DNA from: an uncultured Mycoplasmatota bacterium
GTDB lineage: Bacteria > Bacillota_I > Bacilli_A > RF39 > UBA660
Direction: 5' to 3'
DNA length: 52,905 nt
Assembly (NCBI GenBank): GCA_946530475.1
Contig: CAMNAC010000001.1
Coordinates: 1 to 52,905, forward strand
Part shown: positions 12,723-50,804 of the stretch, piece by piece
Layout: each line of letters starts with the position of its first letter
Numbering within the stretch: the first letter of the stretch is position 1
Made by a program: the position numbers and the translations under genes
The notes under the pieces: generated by a model
Database searches by the model: none
What the model saw: only the letters and a program-made list of their open reading frames with translations
What the model was told of the DNA's origin: nothing

Positions 12723-14588
12723 ATGAAAAAGAAACAATTTAAAGCAGAATCAAAAAAATTATTAGATTTAATGATTCATTCTATTTATACCAATAAAGAA
12801 ATCTCAATCAGAGAATTAATATCCAATGCAAGTGATGCACTAGATAAAGCTTATTTTAATAGTTTAACAAAGAAAGAGATGAAAATTAAAAAAGAGGATT
12901 TAAAAATTCAAATCTTCTTAGATAAAGATAAGAAAACCATTACCATTAAAGATAATGGTTGCGGTATGAATAAAGAAGAATTAGAAAACAATTTAGGTAC
13001 GATTGCTGAATCAGGTTCTTCCTTATTTAAAAGCCAAAACCAAGATGAAAATATCTCCATTATTGGTCAATTTGGAGTAGGATTCTATAGTGCTTTCATG
13101 ATCGCAAATAAAGTAACTGTTAAAAGTAAACCATATGGTTCAAAAGAAGCTTATCTTTGGGAATCAGAAGGAAATGACGGTTATATTATTGAAGAATGCA
13201 AGAAAAAAGATTATGGTACTGAAATCATTTTAACCATGAAAGAAGATGAAGAAGATGAAGTTTACAGTGATTACTTAGAAGAATACAAAATACGTTCTAT
13301 TATTAAAAAGTATTCCAACTATATTAAATATCCAATTGAAATGGAAGTAACCAAAAAAGAATTAAAAGAAGGTTCTAAAGAGGAATATGAAGAAAAAACA
13401 GAAATGGAAACCTTAAACTCTATGATTCCAATTTGGAAAAAGAAGAAAAGTGAAGTAACAGATGAAGAATATGATAACTTCTATACTTCTACTTTCTATG
13501 ATTATGAAAAACCTTTTCAAGTAATTGATTCTCATGTAGAAGGTCTTACAGAATATGATGCGCTTTTATTTATACCAAGCCATTCACCATTTGATTTATA
13601 CACCAAAGATTATAAAAAGGGATTACAGCTTTATTCCAATGGAGTATTAATTCAAGAACACTGTGAAGAATTACTTCCAGATCATTATTCCTTTGTAAAA
13701 GGAATTGTAGATTCAAAGGATCTCCCTTTAAATATTTCAAGAGAAACCTTACAACAAAATAAAATAATTGAAAGAATTGCTTCTAATGTTGAAAAGAAAA
13801 TTACTTCAGAATTAAAAAAATTACTTGAAAATGATAGAGAAAAATATGAAACTTTCTATCGTAACTTTGGACTTGCATTAAAACTTGGTATCTATCAAAG
13901 TTATGGGATGAAAAAAGACGCTTTACAAGATTTATTATTGTTCACTAGTTCAAAAACTATGAAGTTTAAAACGTTAAATGAATATGAATATTTAGATAAA
14001 CAAGATAAAATCTATTATGTAGTAGGGGAAACAAACGATAAAATTAATTTAATGCCTCAAGTAGAAGCAATGAAAGAAAAAGGATATGATATTCTATATC
14101 TAACAGATGATATTGATGAATTTGTTATGAATATGATGCATGAATATAATGGCAAACACTTTGAAAACATTTTAAGTTCTAAATTAGATATCGAAACGGA
14201 AGAAGAAAAGAAAGAACTTGAAAAAATAAACGAAGAGAAAAAGAACTTGATTTCTACTATGAAAGAAACCTTAAAAAATGTTGTAAAAGATGTAAAATTT
14301 ACTACTTCCTTAAGTAACCATCCAGTATGTTTAGCATCAGAAGGACAAATTAGTGCTGGAATGGAAAAAGTATTAAATACACTACCTAATGGAGAAAAAG
14401 TAAAAGCTGAAGAGGTACTTATGATTAATGCAAAACATCCTATTGTTAAAAAATTAGAGGGATTAAAGAAGGAAGAACTTGAAAAATATGCGAAAGTATT
14501 ATATAACCAAGCTCGTTTAATTGAAGGGTTATCTTTAGATAATCCAAGTGAAATTACTGATATTATCTGTGAATTATTAGCAAAATAA
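12723..14588 (+). CDS. htpG: Molecular chaperone HtpG (Hsp90)
   Basis: The N-terminal GHKL ATPase motifs are present: FKAESKKLLDLMIHSIYTNKEISIRELISNASDALDK and GQFGVGFYSAF. Confidence 0.95.
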   Translation: MKKKQFKAESKKLLDLMIHSIYTNKEISIRELISNASDALDKAYFNSLTKKEMKIKKEDLKIQIFLDKDKKTITIKDNGCGMNKEELENNLGTIAESGSSLFKSQNQDENISIIGQFGVGFYSAFMIANKVTVKSKPYGSKEAYLWESEGNDGYIIEECKKKDYGTEIILTMKEDEEDEVYSDYLEEYKIRSIIKKYSNYIKYPIEMEVTKKELKEGSKEEYEEKTEMETLNSMIPIWKKKKSEVTDEEYDNFYTSTFYDYEKPFQVIDSHVEGLTEYDALLFIPSHSPFDLYTKDYKKGLQLYSNGVLIQEHCEELLPDHYSFVKGIVDSKDLPLNISRETLQQNKIIERIASNVEKKITSELKKLLENDREKYETFYRNFGLALKLGIYQSYGMKKDALQDLLLFTSSKTMKFKTLNEYEYLDKQDKIYYVVGETNDKINLMPQVEAMKEKGYDILYLTDDIDEFVMNMMHEYNGKHFENILSSKLDIETEEEKKELEKINEEKKNLISTMKETLKNVVKDVKFTTSLSNHPVCLASEGQISAGMEKVLNTLPNGEKVKAEEVLMINAKHPIVKKLEGLKKEELEKYAKVLYNQARLIEGLSLDNPSEITDIICELLAK

Positions 14589-14607
14589 AAAAGCCATTTG
14601 GCTTTTT
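14588..14607. terminator. Bidirectional terminator between the convergent htpG and noc-like genes
   Basis: The stem AAAAGCC / GGCTTTT is flanked by an A-run and a T-run. Confidence 0.6.
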
Positions 14608-16198
14608 ATTTTTTTGTTACTTTGAAAATTACTTGATACATATTTTCTAAATCAAATTCATCTGTATCTACTTCATAACCTAACTGTTTTAAGTTTTCTG
14701 CACAAGCTCTAATTGCATCAAGTGCTTGTGTCATATTATTTGTTTGAGGAGCAGTATTAGGCACTGCTACAGTTGGTTCTGGAATCGAAGCTTCCATAGT
14801 TGGTTGTGAAACTGGTGCTGGTTCATTATCTAAATTTTCTAGAAAACTATAATCTGGTGTAGTTACAGGTCCAGTTGGCATTTGAGGTTGTGGTGCTTGT
14901 GGAAGTGATAAATCCAAATCCAATGGTTGCTCTGGTTCTTCTACAACTGCTTCTGTTGGCACTGTTGGTGCAGCAGGTGTTCCAACAACTGGTTCTGTAG
15001 GTACTGCTGGTGTCACAGGTTCTGATACAACTGGTGCAGCTGGAGTTACATCTGGCAATGAACTAATTGGCGCTGGTTCCAATACAGGAGCTTCTTGAAC
15101 TGGAGCTGGAGCAATTGGTTGCGCATTAAACCCATCTGCAACTGGAGAAGGCTCTAAATTTGGAATTTGTGGTTTTTCAGCTACATTTAATACATCAAAG
15201 AATTTTCCAGGAGTTACTTCAGGTGCTGCTGGTTGTGGTTGTGCTTCCACTGGAGCAGGTGCTGGAGCAATTCCGGATGGATTTAATAAATTGTTCACAT
15301 CTACAGAAGGTTTTGGCTCAAAAATATTGGTTGCATTTTGTTCAATTTGATTAATATCCATAAAACCAGGATTTACACTTGGTTCTTCATGTACCTCATC
15401 AATAATTGGAGATACTGGGATATTTACATTTTGATCATTCATTTTTGGTTCCTCCTTTTCATCTAAATCTAATACTTCTAATGGTTCTGAAACTTCTGGA
15501 ATAATAGGTGTTGCTTCTTTTACTTCAGGCATTACGGAAACTGGTTCAGGTACCTTATTTTCAACAGGTTTCTCTTCTATTGTCTCTTTATTTGTTCCAT
15601 TTAGTATTTTATTAATTTCTTCATCCGTTTTTCTTACTGTTAAACGTTTTTCTATAATCTTCTTCAATAATTCTCTTTGATCTTTTTGACTTAATTTTAA
15701 TAAAGAACGAGCATGTCTTTCTGATATTTTTTCATTTAACAAGGCTTCTTGTACATCATCATCTAGATTTAGCAAGCGAAGTTTATTTGCAACTGTAGAT
15801 TGATCTTTCCCTAATTTATCAGCCAATTGATTTTGGGTTAAATAGCCCATATCTAATATTTTCTTATAAGATACTGCTTCTTCAATTGGAGTTAAATCTT
15901 GTCTTTGTACGTTTTCAATCAATGCAATTTCTGCGCTATCTTTATCATCTAAGTTTGCAACTAATGCAGGTATTGTCTTCATACCAGCTAACACACTTGC
16001 TTTATAACGACGTTCTCCTGCTATAATTTCATATTTGTCTGCAATTGGTCTTACGACAATTGGTTGAATAACTCCATGTTCTTTAATAGATTCTGACAAC
16101 TCATTAATTGCATCTTCATCAAAACGAATTCTTGGTTGAAAACGGTTAGGTAAGATATCATCTAAATTTAATTCAATTACTTTTTTTTCTTCTTTCAT
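14606..16198 (-). CDS. noc: ParB/Noc family protein with a Noc-type HTH, a long Pro/Ala/Val-rich insertion and a Noc-like C-terminal domain (530 aa)
   Basis: The N-terminal domain contains LPNRFQPRIRF...HGVIQPIVVR...AGERRYKA (the GERR CTP-binding box). The HTH reads LTQNQLADKLGKDQSTVANKLRLLNL...ISERHARSL, close to B. subtilis Noc (GKGQSTIANKLRLLKLP...ITERHARAL) as I recall it. The C-terminus ALDAIRACAENLKQLGYEVDTDEFDLENMYQVIFKVTKK resembles the Noc C-terminal domain. The gene lies directly downstream of rsmG, the canonical noc position. Confidence 0.8.
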   Translation of the reverse strand: MKEEKKVIELNLDDILPNRFQPRIRFDEDAINELSESIKEHGVIQPIVVRPIADKYEIIAGERRYKASVLAGMKTIPALVANLDDKDSAEIALIENVQRQDLTPIEEAVSYKKILDMGYLTQNQLADKLGKDQSTVANKLRLLNLDDDVQEALLNEKISERHARSLLKLSQKDQRELLKKIIEKRLTVRKTDEEINKILNGTNKETIEEKPVENKVPEPVSVMPEVKEATPIIPEVSEPLEVLDLDEKEEPKMNDQNVNIPVSPIIDEVHEEPSVNPGFMDINQIEQNATNIFEPKPSVDVNNLLNPSGIAPAPAPVEAQPQPAAPEVTPGKFFDVLNVAEKPQIPNLEPSPVADGFNAQPIAPAPVQEAPVLEPAPISSLPDVTPAAPVVSEPVTPAVPTEPVVGTPAAPTVPTEAVVEEPEQPLDLDLSLPQAPQPQMPTGPVTTPDYSFLENLDNEPAPVSQPTMEASIPEPTVAVPNTAPQTNNMTQALDAIRACAENLKQLGYEVDTDEFDLENMYQVIFKVTKK

Positions 16199-16296
16199 TG
16201 TACTTCCCTTCCTATTCTTAAAATAATCATACTATATTTTGGGAAATAAAACAATGATTTTTTGGGAAATAATTATATTTTTTATTTTTTTATTTT

Positions 16297-16324
16297 AAAA
16301 AGCCTTTATTATAAAGGCTTTTTC
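16297..16324 (-). terminator. Terminator hairpin overlapping the rsmG stop codon
   Basis: The stem AAAGCCTTTAT / ATAAAGGCTTT is followed by a T-run on the minus strand. It separates rsmG from the noc-like gene. Confidence 0.55.
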
Positions 16325-17013
16325 TTAATTTCTGAATATTTTCTAGGATACTTTAAAGATGTTTTTTCTTGTTTTTTTATCACTAAAATGGTTCTGTTAG
16401 ATTGTTCTTTTGGTAGCAAAAAAGAAATTTCTTTTTCTAAATATCCATGAAGAATTTCCATCGCTTTTTTGCTTTCTTCTAATTCTTGGGAAATATTTCC
16501 TTTTAAAGGAATAAAATACTTATTAATCTTAACTAATGGCATACAGTATTCCATTAATATAGAGAGTGGGGCAACAGCCCTTGCGGTTACCACATCGAAA
16601 GATTCCCTATGCTCTTTCGCAAAGTCTTCAGCTCTAGCATGATAGGTTTTTATTTTTTTTAATTCTAGTTTTTGAATGACTTCATCTAAAAATGTAATTC
16701 TTTTTTGTAAAGAATCAACTAATGATATCTGCATATCTGGAAATAAAATCTTTAATACAATTCCAGGGAAACCAGCACCTGTTCCTACATCACATAGTGT
16801 TGTTACTTCATGAAAATCAATTGCTTTTAGAATTGTCGCACTATCATAAAAATGTTTTAAATAAACTTGACTTTCTTCTGTAATTCCAGTTAAATTCATT
16901 TTTTGGTTCCATTCCACTAATAATTCATAATACATATGAAATTGTTTTCTTTGAAGTTCTGACAATTCAATTCCAAGTATACTCAATTCTTTTATAAATT
17001 CATGTTCTGTCAT
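16309..17013 (-). CDS. rsmG: 16S rRNA (guanine527-N7)-methyltransferase RsmG (GidB)
   Basis: The SAM-binding motif [15 protein letters not shown] is present. The mnmG-rsmG synteny holds, with a 4-nt overlap with mnmG. Confidence 0.93.
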
Positions 17014-18872: not shown

Positions 18873-18987
18873 ATATCCACCACCCACTTAAACGAAATTA
18901 TTATACTATCTTTTTTTTTTAATGACAACAAAATTCGGGAAATAATTTCATAGAATGCGATATAATATAGTTATAAAGGAGAAGATT

Positions 18988-19461
18988 ATGGAAAGAATTA
19001 ATACATTTAGTGTTGAAATCATTCAAAATCGTGAAAATAAAGAATTATCTTATGGTGGATCTTATTACGGACCAATTGGCAAATTTGTAGGTTCTGTGAT
19101 GGATTCTAATCAGGATACGTTTTTAATATTTAAAAATTCAGATGATCAATATTTTATGATGCAAGCTGTAATTGATATGACTGTTATATTATCAAAAAAT
19201 GGTCCTTTTGTTTATGAAACAATCATAGTAAATGAACAGAAAGAAGAAGTGAAAAAAGAACTTTTATTCAGTCTATTGGAAAATGGTACAATTGATATTT
19301 CTTTAGGACTTAAGCAACATAACAATACAGTTTTTGTTGCAAAAGAAGAAGTTTTTTGTATGTTAAATGATCTTAAAAAACAATATCCAAATGATTCTTT
19401 AAACACTTGTTTAAAACTTCTAGATACAGAAAAAAAATTAGTCAAAAAACAAAAAGCCTAA
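18988..19461 (+). CDS. Hypothetical protein (157 aa from the preferred ATG)
   Basis: The track ORF starts at 18955. The ATG at 18988 follows an AAGGAG RBS. No motif is recognised. A terminator at 19451-19472 overlaps the stop. Confidence 0.5.
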   Translation: MERINTFSVEIIQNRENKELSYGGSYYGPIGKFVGSVMDSNQDTFLIFKNSDDQYFMMQAVIDMTVILSKNGPFVYETIIVNEQKEEVKKELLFSLLENGTIDISLGLKQHNNTVFVAKEEVFCMLNDLKKQYPNDSLNTCLKLLDTEKKLVKKQKA

Positions 19462-19480: not shown

Positions 19481-19496
19481 TATTTCCCGGGAAATA
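19481..19496. promoter_or_regulatory. Perfect Noc-binding-site (NBS) palindrome TATTTCCCGGGAAATA
   Basis: The 16-bp perfect palindrome contains the published 14-bp NBS consensus ATTTCCCGGGAAAT. It lies between convergent genes. Confidence 0.6.
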
Positions 19497-23936: not shown

Positions 23937-24026
23937 TTTTTTTTGTTCTTTTTTAATATTTTTTCTTTGCTTTTTCATAAAAATATTGTACAATAATGGT
24001 AAATTTTACAAAGTGAGGTGTTTAGG

Positions 24027-32946: not shown

Positions 32947-33064
32947 ATGTTTCACGTGGAACTATGAAATTTTGTTGTTATGTTCCACGTGAAACTATAA
33001 AAGTATATCACTATGTTCCACGTGAAACTATAAAAGTATATCACTATGTTCCACGTGAAACTAT
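32947..33064. repeat. parS-like site cluster A: 4 copies at exact 33-bp spacing
   Basis: The 19-mers ATGTTYCACGTGRAACTAT lie at 32947-32965 (T/G variant), 32980-32998, 33013-33031 and 33046-33064. The inner 16-mer TGTTCCACGTGAAACT matches the parS consensus TGTTNCACGTGAAACA at 15/16 positions. Copies 2-4 sit in a perfect 33-bp tandem repeat, TATGTTCCACGTGAAACTATAAAAGTATATCAC. Confidence 0.8.
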
Positions 33065-33258
33065 GATTTAACGAATTTAATGTCTATATAAAATTGTAAT
33101 TATATTTGATATTATAATTATTGAGCAAAGCGCATAAATCCTTATTTTATAATGCTTTTATGTACTTACTTATATAATAGCACAACATAATTTAAGATAT
33201 TTTTATCTTAAATAATAAATCAAATTAAATATGCAATCTAATTAGAAATTAATATTTA

Positions 33259-33407
33259 ATGTTCCACGTGAAACTATAATAAACTGAACAATGTTCCACG
33301 TGAAACTATGAAATAATAAGACTATGTTCCACGTGAAACTATATCGCACTGAACAATGTTTCACGTGAAACTATGAAATAATAAGACTATGTTTCACGTG
33401 AAACTAT
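33259..33407. repeat. parS-like site cluster B: 5 copies at alternating 32/33-bp spacing
   Basis: The same 19-mer lies at 33259-33277, 33291-33309, 33324-33342, 33356-33374 and 33389-33407. The last two copies are the perfectly palindromic GTTTCACGTGAAAC variant. Copies 6-9 lie in a 65-bp tandem duplication. Confidence 0.8.
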
Positions 33408-33500: not shown

Positions 33501-33520
33501 AATATTTCCCGGGAAATATT
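33501..33520. promoter_or_regulatory. Perfect 20-bp palindrome containing an NBS (AATATTTCCCGGGAAATATT)
   Basis: The core TATTTCCCGGGAAATA lies at 33503-33518 and is identical to the copies at 19481 and 41100. Confidence 0.65.
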
Positions 33521-33565
33521 TGAAAACTATTGATTTTGTTTAAAAAATAGTGTATTTTATTAATT

Positions 33566-33640
33566 GACACAACATTTATGTATGAACCAGGTCAGAGTTG
33601 GAAGACAGCAGCCTTAAATACCTCTAAGTGTGTGTGTCAT
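33566..33640 (+). ncRNA. ffs: Small (4.5S-type) signal recognition particle RNA
   Basis: AACCAGGTCAGAGTTGGAAGACAGCAGCC matches the conserved domain IV of E. coli 4.5S RNA (ACCAGGUCAGGUCCGGAAGGAAGCAGCC), including the GGAA tetraloop. The 5' arm GACACAACATTTA pairs with the 3' arm TAAGTGTGTGTGTC to form one long hairpin, which is followed by a T-run. A possible promoter is TTGATT (33530) -17 nt- TATTTT (33553). The ends are approximate. Confidence 0.65.
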
Positions 33641-33657
33641 TTTTTTATGGTGATGTT

Positions 33658-40470: not shown

Positions 40471-40530
40471 GACAACAAAACGTTGTCTTTTCTATTCAAA
40501 AAAAAGTATAATAAGAATGGGAGTGATCGT

Positions 40531-41373
40531 ATGTCACAAAAAAGTTATGACAATAGTCCTACTGTATATCTAATACCAACTCCAATTGGAAATATGGATG
40601 ATATGACTTTTAGAGCTGTAAAAATATTACAAGAAGTGGAAGTTATTTTTTCTGAGGATACAAGAGTTACAAATTTGTTATTAAAACACTTTGATATCCA
40701 TAAAAAATGTATTTCGAGCCATAAATTCAACGAAGAAAAAAATCATGAAAAACTTCTTTCTTATTTAGAAAAAGGCTTTCATGTTGGAGTTGTAAGTGAT
40801 AGGGGAACCCCTGTTATCAGCGATCCAGGTTATGAACTAGCAAAATATGCGATTGATAAAGGATATAATGTAGTAGGGTTACCAGGCGCAACAGCTTTAA
40901 TTCCCGCACTTATTATGTCTGGGATTTCTCCACAACCTTTCTTATTTTATGGATTCTTAAATAATAAGGATGGAAAAAGAAAGAAAGAATTAGAAAGTTT
41001 AAAAGAAGAAAAAGCAACTCTTATTTTTTATGAAGCACCTCATCGTTTAGAAAAAACATTGCTTTTGATGAAAGAAGTATTGGGAAATCGTAAGATAAGT
41101 ATTTCCCGGGAAATAAGTAAAAAGTTTGAAGAAGTTTATAGAGGAACTTTTGAAGAAGTTTTAAAAGAAGTAAAAGATGCAAAAGGAGAATTTGTAATTG
41201 TGGTAAGTGGAAATACAGATGAATCTTCTTTTGAACATTTATCTATTATTGAACATGTAAATTCATATTTAAAAGAAGGATATACAAAAAAAGAAGCATA
41301 TAAAAAGGTTGCTTCTGATAGGGGTATCAGTAAAAATGAAGTTTATCAAACATATGAAAGGGGGATTTTATGA
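40531..41373 (+). CDS. rsmI: 16S rRNA (cytidine1402-2'-O)-methyltransferase RsmI
   Basis: The track ORF starts at 40483. The ATG at 40531 follows a GGGAG RBS. LYLIPTPIGNMDDMTFRA, SDRGTPVISDPG and FYEAPHR are present. Confidence 0.9.
   Translation: MSQKSYDNSPTVYLIPTPIGNMDDMTFRAVKILQEVEVIFSEDTRVTNLLLKHFDIHKKCISSHKFNEEKNHEKLLSYLEKGFHVGVVSDRGTPVISDPGYELAKYAIDKGYNVVGLPGATALIPALIMSGISPQPFLFYGFLNNKDGKRKKELESLKEEKATLIFYEAPHRLEKTLLLMKEVLGNRKISISREISKKFEEVYRGTFEEVLKEVKDAKGEFVIVVSGNTDESSFEHLSIIEHVNSYLKEGYTKKEAYKKVASDRGISKNEVYQTYERGIL
41100..41115. promoter_or_regulatory. Perfect NBS palindrome TATTTCCCGGGAAATA inside the rsmI coding sequence
   Basis: The 16-mer is identical to the copies at 19481 and 33503 and encodes ...SISREIS... 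Confidence 0.55.
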
Positions 41374-49001: not shown

Positions 49002-49223
49002 AGTTTAAAAGTTTTGATGGAGAGGGAAAGAAGAATTTCTTTTAAAAGAGAATCTATGGTTGGTGAAAATAGATAAGAAAGCTTTTTTCAAATGGCTCTT
49101 GAACTGATTTACCGATAGGTAGGTAGATACGTAATTCTGCGTTAAAGATTTAAGGTGTATCTGGGATACATAAATTAAGGTGGTACCACGTAAACTACGT
49201 CCTTATCGGATGTGGTTTTTTTA
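49002..49223 (+). promoter_or_regulatory. T-box leader (Met-specific candidate) with terminator, upstream of metG
   Basis: An extended -10 (TGTTATACT) lies at 48987-48995. An AGAGA box and a GGTGAAA distal-loop motif are present. The candidate AUG specifier is at 49092-49094 (CAAAUGG), just 5' of the Stem I closing strand. The T-box sequence AATTAAGGTGGTACCACG lies at 49174-49190. The terminator stem ACGTCC/GGATGT (49197-49213) is followed by a T-run. Confidence 0.8.
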
Positions 49224-49238
49224 TTTAGGAGGGATAAT

Positions 49239-50804
49239 ATGAAAGAAAAATACTATATTTCCACTGCGATTGCTTATACATCAGGGAAACCACATATTGG
49301 AAATACTTATGAAATTGTTCTTGCAGATGCGATTGCTCGATACAAACGTTTTTTAGGGTATGATGTTTATTTCCAAACAGGAACTGATGAACATGGGGAA
49401 AAAATTGAATTAAAGGCAAAAGCACAAGGAAAAGAGCCACAAGAATTTGTTGATGAAATCGCATTAGAAGTAAGAAGAATTTGGGATACGATGAATACAA
49501 GCTATGATAAGTTTGTAAGAACAACTGCACCATCTCATATGGAAGAAGTTGCGAAAATCTTTAAGCGATTATATGATCAAGGGGATATTTATAAAGGAAA
49601 ATACGAAGGTTTATATTGTACTCCATGTGAATCTTTCTTTACCGAAAGTCAATTAGTAGATGGAAAATGTCCAGATTGCGGAAGAGAAGTTCATGTCGCA
49701 TCAGAAGAAGCATATTTCTTTAAACTTGAAAAATATGCGAAAAGATTAGAAGAATATATCGAAACACACCCAGATTTTATTCAACCTGAATCAAGAAAAA
49801 ATGAAATTATTAATAACTTTATTAAGCCTGGTTTACAAGATTTATGTGTATCTCGTACTTCTTTTGACTGGGGTATACCAGTATCATTTGATGAAAAACA
49901 TGTTGTCTATGTTTGGATCGATGCATTAAGTAACTATATTACCTTCTTAGGTTACCATACTGAAGAGGAATCTGAAGAAGATTTTAAAAAGTATTGGCCT
50001 GCAGATTTGCATCTAATTGGAAAAGATATTTTAAGATTTCATACAATTTACTGGCCAATTATGTTAATGGCATTGGATTTACCTTTACCAAAACAAATCT
50101 TTGGACATCCTTGGGTATTGATTGGAACAGATAAGATGAGTAAATCCAAAGGAAACATCATCTATGCAGATGATTTAGTAAATCTATTTGGGGTAGATGC
50201 GGTAAGATATTATTTATTACATGAAATTCCATTTGCATCGGATGGAACGATTACATATGAATTACTAATTGAACGAATCAATTCTGATTTAGCGAATATC
50301 TTAGGAAATTTAGTCAATCGTACTATCAGCATGAGTCATAAATACTTTGATGGAGTTGTATTAGAACCAAAAGAAGAAGAGAAAATTGATCAAGAATTAA
50401 AATCTTTAGTTTTAGATACAACAGAAAAAGTAAATCAAAAAATGGATCGTCTTCGTATAGCAGACGCTATCGACGATATTTTTGAAATCTTTAGAAGATG
50501 TAATAAATACATTGATGAAACAACTCCTTGGGCACTTGCAAAAGAGGAATCAAAAAAAGAAAGATTACAAACTGTCTTATATAACTTATTAGAATCTATT
50601 CGTCATGGAGCTGTTTTGTTACAATCTTTTTTACCAGAGACTGCAGATTCTATTTTTCATCAATTAAATACGGAAAATAGATATTATGAATCTTTATCTA
50701 ACTTTAATGGATTGGATTATGGAATTCATTTAAATAAGCCAGAACCATTATTTATACGTATTGATAAAGAAAAAAAATTAAAAGAAATTGAAGAAAGTGA
50801 ATAA
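49239..50804 (+). CDS. metG: Methionine--tRNA ligase (short form, no C-terminal tRNA-binding appendix)
   Basis: The preferred start MKEKYYISTAIAYTSGKPHIGN (HIGH motif) follows an AGGAGG RBS. A zinc knuckle (CTPCESF...CPDCG) and the KMSKS motif are present. Confidence 0.95.
   Translation: MKEKYYISTAIAYTSGKPHIGNTYEIVLADAIARYKRFLGYDVYFQTGTDEHGEKIELKAKAQGKEPQEFVDEIALEVRRIWDTMNTSYDKFVRTTAPSHMEEVAKIFKRLYDQGDIYKGKYEGLYCTPCESFFTESQLVDGKCPDCGREVHVASEEAYFFKLEKYAKRLEEYIETHPDFIQPESRKNEIINNFIKPGLQDLCVSRTSFDWGIPVSFDEKHVVYVWIDALSNYITFLGYHTEEESEEDFKKYWPADLHLIGKDILRFHTIYWPIMLMALDLPLPKQIFGHPWVLIGTDKMSKSKGNIIYADDLVNLFGVDAVRYYLLHEIPFASDGTITYELLIERINSDLANILGNLVNRTISMSHKYFDGVVLEPKEEEKIDQELKSLVLDTTEKVNQKMDRLRIADAIDDIFEIFRRCNKYIDETTPWALAKEESKKERLQTVLYNLLESIRHGAVLLQSFLPETADSIFHQLNTENRYYESLSNFNGLDYGIHLNKPEPLFIRIDKEKKLKEIEESE

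Follow-up and report, generated by a model that had tools for sequence, protein, structure and literature searches.

A probable lineage-wide Noc with a long motif-bearing linker and no N-terminal membrane helix in uncultured gut Bacilli

In canonical Noc, a membrane-targeting helix α1 is followed by a conserved helix α2 and an 8-residue loop, and α1 remains autoinhibited on the cytidine triphosphate (CTP)-binding domain until CTP closes the clamp (PMC8429893). The choice between the Noc-binding site (NBS) and the parS site of ParB depends on four positions of the helix-turn-helix (HTH) domain, 173, 179, 184 and 201 in Caulobacter numbering, which are R, T, A and G in ParB and Q, K, K and R in Noc. 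Q173 reads the NBS-specific adenine 1, R201 reads the NBS-specific cytosine 6 and one lysine, at 179 or 184, licenses NBS binding; R173 is invariant in parS-specific variants, and dual-specificity variants carry mostly T or S at 201 (PMC7383237). Here we analyse a noc-like gene (14606..16198, reverse strand) from an uncultured Mycoplasmatota bacterium of the GTDB lineage RF39, carried by the first 52,905 nucleotides of contig CAMNAC010000001.1 (assembly GCA_946530475.1), a stretch called the window below. Several lines of comparison support its 530-aa product, the RF39-type long Noc, as the orthologue of Noc in a low-GC, uncultured lineage of gut Bacilli. We consider it quite probable that this protein is a CTP clamp nucleating on NBS whose anchor has been relocated or lost, and that the parS sites of the window are read by a Spo0J encoded outside the contig.

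The gene was delimited from the listing of open reading frames (ORFs) and identified with Pfam, TIGR04285 and PDB matches. In a phmmer comparison with PDB sequences, its N-terminal 211 residues scored 209 bits against G. thermoleovorans Noc (7NG0/7NFU) and 184.7 bits against B. subtilis Noc (7OL9), with B. subtilis Spo0J (6SDK) below them at 167.3 bits. This order is reversed for a 293-aa Spo0J of the same clade, which scored 212.8 bits against 6SDK and 159-165 bits against Noc. Foldseek likewise returned Noc 7NFU as the top match of the AlphaFold model. The nucleoid_noc model TIGR04285 gave the 530-aa protein 289.9 bits, compared with 187.3 for the generic parB_part model, and long-form relatives scored 274-298 bits with TIGR04285. 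The difference between the two models reaches about +100 bits for the long forms, whereas it is limited to +22 to +36 bits for the clade Spo0J. The TIGR04285 alignment spans model positions 1-215 of 255 and ends there, a linker of 290 residues separating this part from the C-terminal domain.

The C-terminal domain provided an independent comparison. A profile built on the last 60 residues of the long-Noc relatives matched the canonical Noc C-terminal domain in hhalign with a probability of 97.3% (E = 2e-11, 45 columns), against a probability of 0.2% for the C-terminal domain of the clade Spo0J. Plain BLASTP of the domain against B. subtilis Noc gave no match, and the similarity emerged in the profile comparison. 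When a tree was computed by neighbour joining on the first ~210 columns of the alignment, with a small reference set, the long forms made up a single clade (100%) whose sister group was canonical Noc in 75% of 300 bootstraps, while the short paralogues of the clade group with B. subtilis Spo0J. One reference, the Noc of the Bacilli organism S. aureus, was not taken from a sequence record and was used for the tree only; this protein is of normal length and carries an N-terminal MKKPFSKLFGL helix. None of the best 150 library representatives was a canonical Noc that could be added to the tree. The original prediction had called the protein Noc-like, its C-terminal domain included, and both the profile comparison and the placement of the long forms next to Noc rather than within Spo0J bear this out.

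The likeness to the Noc proteins of B. subtilis and G. thermoleovorans extends over the succession of ParB_N, HTH and Noc-type C-terminal domains, 49-52% identity across the first 200 residues, the PNRFQPR, HGxIQPIVVR and ANKLRLL..ITERHAR blocks, residues Q173, K179 and R201, and the presence of perfect NBS palindromes in the genome. The gene also follows rsmG, a gene order found in Bacillus. The long form differs from these proteins by the lack of α1, α2 and the loop (~26 residues), by N instead of K at position 184, by GERRYKA instead of GERRWRA and by a linker of ~290 aa (200-600 aa in relatives) bearing conserved short motifs in place of one of ~30 aa. In addition, soj-spo0J is not adjacent to the long noc, and the score lies 25 bits under the family cut-off. 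With the Spo0J/ParB proteins of known structure (6SDK, 1VZ0, 4UMK, 6T1F), the long Noc shares the superfamily fold, the CTP-binding motifs and presumably the clamp mechanics, but it has neither R173/G201 nor the ParA-stimulating LG(R/K)GL peptide, and the C-terminal domains are unrelated at profile level.

Four regions make up the protein, all encoded on the reverse strand. The ParB N-terminal, CTP-binding domain (aa 6-98, 15905..16183) is defined by Pfam ParB_N and by alignment to 7NFU, 7NG0 and 7OL9; it contains the PNRFQPR, GERRYKA and ENVQRQDL motifs and was modelled with a predicted local distance difference test (pLDDT) of 85-91. The HTH DNA-binding domain (aa 100-199, 15602..15901, Pfam HTH_ParB, pLDDT ~90) superimposes on the complex of the Noc DNA-binding domain with NBS (6Y93) with a Foldseek template modelling score of 0.87-0.89. 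A disordered linker rich in P, A, V and E follows (aa 200-488, 14735..15601), with a pLDDT below 50 over most of its length, low column conservation and variable length in relatives; its coding sequence includes a 42-bp tandem repeat at 14934-15035 found with Tandem Repeats Finder (TRF). The Noc-type C-terminal dimerisation domain (aa 489-530, 14609..14734), identified by hhalign, is predicted as a helix and two strands with a pLDDT of ~92. Overall, the model has a confident fold for residues 1-200 (pLDDT 85-94) and 489-528 (~92), and residues 200-488 are disordered save for a short helix at 282-288. Pfam detected nothing in the 530-aa protein beyond ParB_N and HTH_ParB.

The protein starts almost directly with the ParB N-domain. 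Helices α1 and α2 and the loop, corresponding to the first 26 residues of canonical Noc, are missing ahead of it: canonical Nocs begin with MKHPFSRFFGLGEKE, which none of the long-form relatives does, and the N-terminus here is MKEEKKVIELNLDDILPN, the true start reading MKEEKKVIELNLDDILPNRFQPR. The 14606..16198 frame is the maximal ORF at the locus. A TAG stop lies in frame 12 codons 5' of the ATG and a ribosome-binding site, AAGGGAAG, precedes this codon; an N-terminal extension is therefore impossible. The absence of the amphipathic helix, already noticed in the first reading of the DNA, agrees with this start and with the upstream stop.

The recognition segment GKDQSTVANKLRLLNL...ISERHAR (15707..15811, reverse strand) carries Q133, K139, N144 and R161, which correspond to Caulobacter positions 173, 179, 184 and 201 by residue alignment to the Nocs of G. 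thermoleovorans and B. subtilis. The long Noc is thus Q-K-N-R where Noc is Q-K-K-R, three of the four specificity positions matching and position 184 being N. Q133 and R161 do not vary among 80 relatives, at least 90% of which also keep K139 and N144. The rules of PMC7383237 would make Q-K-N-R NBS-specific, through Q173 and R201 with one permissive lysine. The Q-K-N-R variant itself was not found in the deep-mutational-scanning supplements of that study that we examined, so this specificity is a prediction from its general rules. The original prediction had read the same four residues, and the positions that it gave for ParB and Noc match the published ones; the dual parS/NBS specificity that it envisaged is not what these rules predict.

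Three NBS matches were found in the window by motif scan, all of them perfect, compared with a mean of 0.27 in shuffled sequences at up to two mismatches. Listed without strand, they are a core ATTTCCCGGGAAAT between mnmE and a 168-aa ORF (19482..19495), a 16-mer TATTTCCCGGGAAATA located 100 bp after the parS array (33504..33517) and a core inside the ORF 40483..41373 (41101..41114). In 1.47 Mb of origin-proximal loci of the clade, the NBS palindrome occurs 15 times and each of 139 composition-matched palindromes occurs 0 times. The flanks mostly rebuild the canonical 16-mer, and the palindrome is often located 100-300 bp 5' of the noc start. Eleven relatives possess a perfect NBS 70-310 bp before the start of the long noc (L004, L005, L021, L028, L036, L043, L055, L059, L065, L069 and L083), which by position would fall in the 3' end of rsmG or in the rsmG-noc gap. 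The window has only two NBS half-sites upstream of noc, against the perfect palindrome of these relatives. These half-sites TATTTCCC are in direct orientation, 23 bp apart (16241..16271, reverse strand), and were identified by reading the sequence and as a TRF period-23 repeat; they may represent an autoregulatory or weak nucleation site. They stand in the rsmG-noc intergenic or promoter region, immediately 5' of the hexamer TATAGT, which resembles a -10 element, and of the noc start.

The long form is not an oddity of one contig. The original prediction considered the protein atypical, but its missing N-terminus and its specificity residues are shared across the lineage to which it belongs: among ~330 relatives examined, every one lacks the canonical N-terminus, and nearly all those whose HTH was read carry Q-K-N-R. 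A scan with one genome per species yielded 80 loci, all from metagenome-assembled genomes of uncultured gut 'Bacilli' or 'Tenericutes', among them Candidatus Fimihabitans, which belongs to GTDB order RF39, family CAG-822 (PMC8035907). The best 150 representatives at 50% identity measure 291-885 aa, all but two exceeding 380 aa; all aligned from residues 1-21 of the 530-aa protein, and the alignment starts within the first ten residues of nearly every representative. Complete GTDB ORFs among the relatives measure 405-732 aa. The long-linker Noc is consequently a lineage-wide variant, typical of its own lineage. No description of a Noc in RF39 or of a long-linker Noc was found in the literature searched, and a lineage-wide Noc without α1-α2 and with a disordered, motif-bearing linker of 200-600 aa is what is new here.

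The length and composition of the linker vary freely across relatives, and short motifs persist within it. Conservation profiles revealed three islands, all encoded on the reverse strand. Island A (VNIPVSPIID, aa 258-267, 15398..15427) is of a type, NIPxxPI, present in 139 of the 268 full-length relatives, with the consensus NIPxxPIIE. Island B (VNPGFMDINQIEQNATNIF...LLNP, aa 275-306, 15281..15376) encompasses the helix predicted by AlphaFold at 282-288 (pLDDT ~75); F279 is at least 90% conserved in the 80 relatives, and the PGF.D motif occurs in 175 of the 268, with the consensus NPGFMDI-KIE--A-DI...LL-P. Island C (TPGKFFDVLN, aa 329-338, 15185..15214) carries a [KR]-F-F motif found in 233 of the 268, with the consensus L-K-P-G-[KR]-F-F-N-[LMF] and acidic residues after it; across the 80 relatives F334 is invariant and F333 is at least 90% conserved. 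In one relative (L060), many PEPFNPF repeats take the place of the K-F-F motif.

The core and charge pattern of island C resemble the core of the canonical Noc membrane helix, S-R-F-F-G-L-G-E-K-E, and its hydrophobic moment (0.38-0.46) compares with that of the canonical helix (0.41-0.45). These features suggest island C as a candidate membrane-targeting or partner-binding peptide. We tentatively propose that the [KR]-F-F motif replaces the membrane or partner contact of the lost Bacillus-type N-terminus, a replacement that the motif likeness makes possible without making it likely. The fuller scenario, in which the RF39-type Noc lost its CTP-gated helix and moved both a [KR]-F-F anchor and at least two partner-binding motifs into the long linker, is a doubtful one to the same degree.

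The linker also lends itself to an explanation without any membrane, in which a Noc-derived clamp, entirely deprived of membrane tethering in this lineage, would use its linker motifs to recruit partners from the divisome, the replisome or SMC, or to drive condensates, and would organise NBS-bearing DNA with no classic nucleoid occlusion at the membrane. The absence of α1 and α2 in every relative examined and the retention of short motifs alone in a linker of highly variable composition would fit such a role, as would the incomplete distribution of the KFF motif and the character of the NIPxxPIIE motif and of the acidic helix PGFMDI..IE..A.DI, which are unlike membrane-binding peptides. However, the best-conserved residues of the linker are two phenylalanines in a basic-then-acidic setting very like that of the canonical membrane helix, and no partner has been identified. 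We regard this non-membrane role as unlikely, though it is the strongest of the competing explanations and agrees with the explanation favoured here on all points but the function of a single motif.

The window is an origin region, with the dnaA start at 24018 and a sign flip of the GC skew near 24 kb, and it contains two parS arrays, of four and five sites (nine in all), between gyrA and the signal recognition particle (SRP) RNA (32948..33405, no strand assigned; motif scan and TRF). The sites are near-identical with a period of 32-33 bp, and the arrays flank a 195-bp AT-rich spacer. The number is the one given in the original prediction. A gyrA-[parS array]-tadA/dnaX layout with 2-7 copies and periods of 27 or 36-39 bp was found in 7 low-GC metagenome contigs, whose GyrA C-termini are 56-71% identical to the GyrA of the window; the parS array after gyrA is a lineage feature. 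Perfect parS pairs 10-30 bp apart are widespread in metagenomes of all GC contents and many phyla (L087-L206); they adjoin soj-spo0J in about half of the 120 loci retrieved, and some contigs hold 7-12 sites (L114, L126). Given how common such pairs are, the mere existence of the array is unremarkable.

A tblastn search of the window with the Soj, Spo0J and Noc proteins of B. subtilis found neither a ParA nor a second ParB-family gene. The gene had indeed been described from the outset as the sole ParB-family member of the window, without soj/spo0J partners and in an rsmG-noc-soj-spo0J block broken after noc by a convergent htpG, and the tblastn result and the ORF listing agree with that description. 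The further suggestion that the organism may lack Spo0J, the long Noc reading parS, does not fit what is seen in the clade, where the long Noc occurs along with an R173/G201 Spo0J. In six relatives (L020, L021, L028, L036, L055 and L083), soj and the 293-aa Spo0J lie 4-8 kb from the long noc, and in a seventh (L032) the 293-aa Spo0J is less than 10 kb from the long noc and cut at the locus edge. This Spo0J starts with MENKKRALGMGLEQLF, has the ParA-stimulating peptide (LGMGLEQLF) and reads GKSRSH...MGHAR, that is R173 and G201. It belongs to an abundant family, numbering over 120 clusters of 75-100% identity, and its setting, soj-spo0J-...-ychF-rpsF-ssb-rpsR, follows the usual order.

In the window, the whole soj-spo0J block, including the essential rpsF-ssb-rpsR, is absent between noc and the DHH-rplI-dnaB genes; the concomitant absence of rpsF-ssb-rpsR argues for a relocation of the block and not for its loss. 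We infer that a rearrangement took the soj-spo0J of the source genome away from noc, to a place beyond the 53-kb contig. Relatives illustrate such breaks. In L021, noc and soj are parted by an insertion of uvrB-lgt genes; L020 has soj-spo0J-ychF-rpsF-ssb upstream of mnmG; in L084-L086, soj-spo0J follows tilS-ftsH, with no noc within 10 kb and no parS or NBS near soj-spo0J. The ancestral rsmG-noc-soj-spo0J block is broken differently in each of these cases, which points to repeated rearrangement around the origin.

These observations bear on the possibility that the Q-K-N-R protein is the only ParB of the organism, reading both parS and NBS and ensuring segregation as well as nucleoid occlusion without any Spo0J. 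The 53-kb origin region without another ParB or ParA would be in keeping with it, and so would the distance of 100 bp between parS and NBS (33405/33504), the N at 184 unlike canonical Noc and the 82 dual-specificity variants held in the published library (PMC7383237). In a relative (L134), two NBS-like sites are interleaved between parS sub-arrays, which counts in its favour too. Yet position 173 is Q and position 201 is R, neither R173 nor the T or S at 201 (PMC7383237). The Q-K-N-R long form coexists with Soj and an R..G Spo0J in seven relatives, and the Spo0J family is large. Moreover, the long Noc lacks the N-terminal LG-R/K-GL ParA-stimulating peptide present in the clade Spo0J, and rpsF-ssb-rpsR, the usual companions of soj-spo0J, are missing from the window as well. 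We judge a sole, dual-specificity ParB very unlikely. Because relatives also keep soj-spo0J elsewhere, the long Noc does not appear to be a lone or dual-purpose ParB, and we infer that the reader of the parS array is not the long Noc but a canonical Spo0J whose gene lies outside the contig.

Several points weigh against the reading of the protein as an NBS-nucleating Noc with a relocated or lost anchor. The assignment fails two formal criteria: the TIGR04285 score of 289.9 bits misses the cut-off of 315 bits, so that NCBI would not name the protein Noc, and the canonical N-terminal amphipathic helix, a defining trait of Noc, is absent. The bootstrap value of the sister relationship to Noc is only moderate (75%), in a tree with few references, one of them not taken from a sequence record. 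N144 stands where Noc has K184, a lysine that hardly ever varies, and GERRYKA has a lysine in place of the third arginine of GERRxRA. As to the linker, the [KR]-F-F motif is absent from ~13% of full-length relatives, and one subclade (L053, L063, L072) has no K-F-F and instead another island, IIITDYSKQYDPVLP, before the C-terminal domain, plus NKFL or NLFSFGE. AlphaFold assigns the [KR]-F-F motif no structure (pLDDT <50), and its likeness to the membrane helix, over about six residues, can be due to chance or convergence. Finally, no Soj or Spo0J was found for the source organism itself on the 53-kb contig, out of a genome probably exceeding 1 Mb. That the protein is a lineage Spo0J/ParB converged on Noc-like residues, as the NCBI and JGI name 'ParB/RepB/Spo0J family partition protein', the score under the Noc cut-off and an identity to Spo0J merely 4-8 points below that to Noc might suggest, is extremely improbable, since the reciprocal best matches, the homology of the C-terminal domain, the tree, the synteny and the specificity residues agree in favouring Noc and the clade has a separate true Spo0J.

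For the NBS-nucleating Noc preferred here, homology and motifs allow a mechanism to be proposed. The long Noc would nucleate on the 16-bp NBS palindrome via Q133 and R161, with K139 as the single permissive lysine, then bind CTP through the conserved motifs of its ParB N-domain and close as a sliding clamp, presumably dimerised by the Noc-type C-terminal domain. The [KR]-F-F peptide of the linker may supply the membrane or partner contact in place of the missing N-terminus. The canonical Spo0J of the lineage, encoded outside the contig, would read the parS array.

The surroundings of the gene complete this picture. On the same strand, noc is preceded by mnmE-mnmG-rsmG, with rsmG immediately upstream (16309..17013, reverse strand). 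On the other side lies the convergent htpG (12723..14588, forward strand), whose end is 17 bp from that of noc, a hairpin terminator being common to both genes. The exact noc protein was found solely on metagenome contigs of at most 53.6 kb. A 168-aa ORF with no Pfam match on record (18955-19461, forward strand) is inserted between mnmG and mnmE in the orientation opposite to theirs, and one of the perfect NBS lies just 3' of its stop. A small SRP RNA (33556-33651, 59.2 bits) directly follows the parS/NBS region. Further along, a T-box leader (49005-49207, 117.9 bits) precedes another ORF of 530 aa (49212..50804).

The generic label of 'ParB/RepB/Spo0J family partition protein' mislabels the long-Noc family, and a ParB census of RF39-type genomes would therefore overcount partition proteins and undercount Noc. 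A very large and abundant gut lineage, represented by hundreds of sequence clusters, keeps the other hallmarks of Noc, including NBS sites, without the membrane helix. As the hosts are uncultured, tests would be limited to biochemical or heterologous approaches. The lineage offers a natural test of whether Noc depends on membrane tethering for its function, whether a peptide inside the protein can provide such tethering and what else Noc can recruit. If the proposed relocation into the linker is true, packing on the CTP-binding domain would cease to autoinhibit the contact with the membrane or a partner. In these bacteria, nucleoid occlusion would then be wired unlike the Bacillus model, around a long-tether Noc that is a possible hub for division and replication factors.

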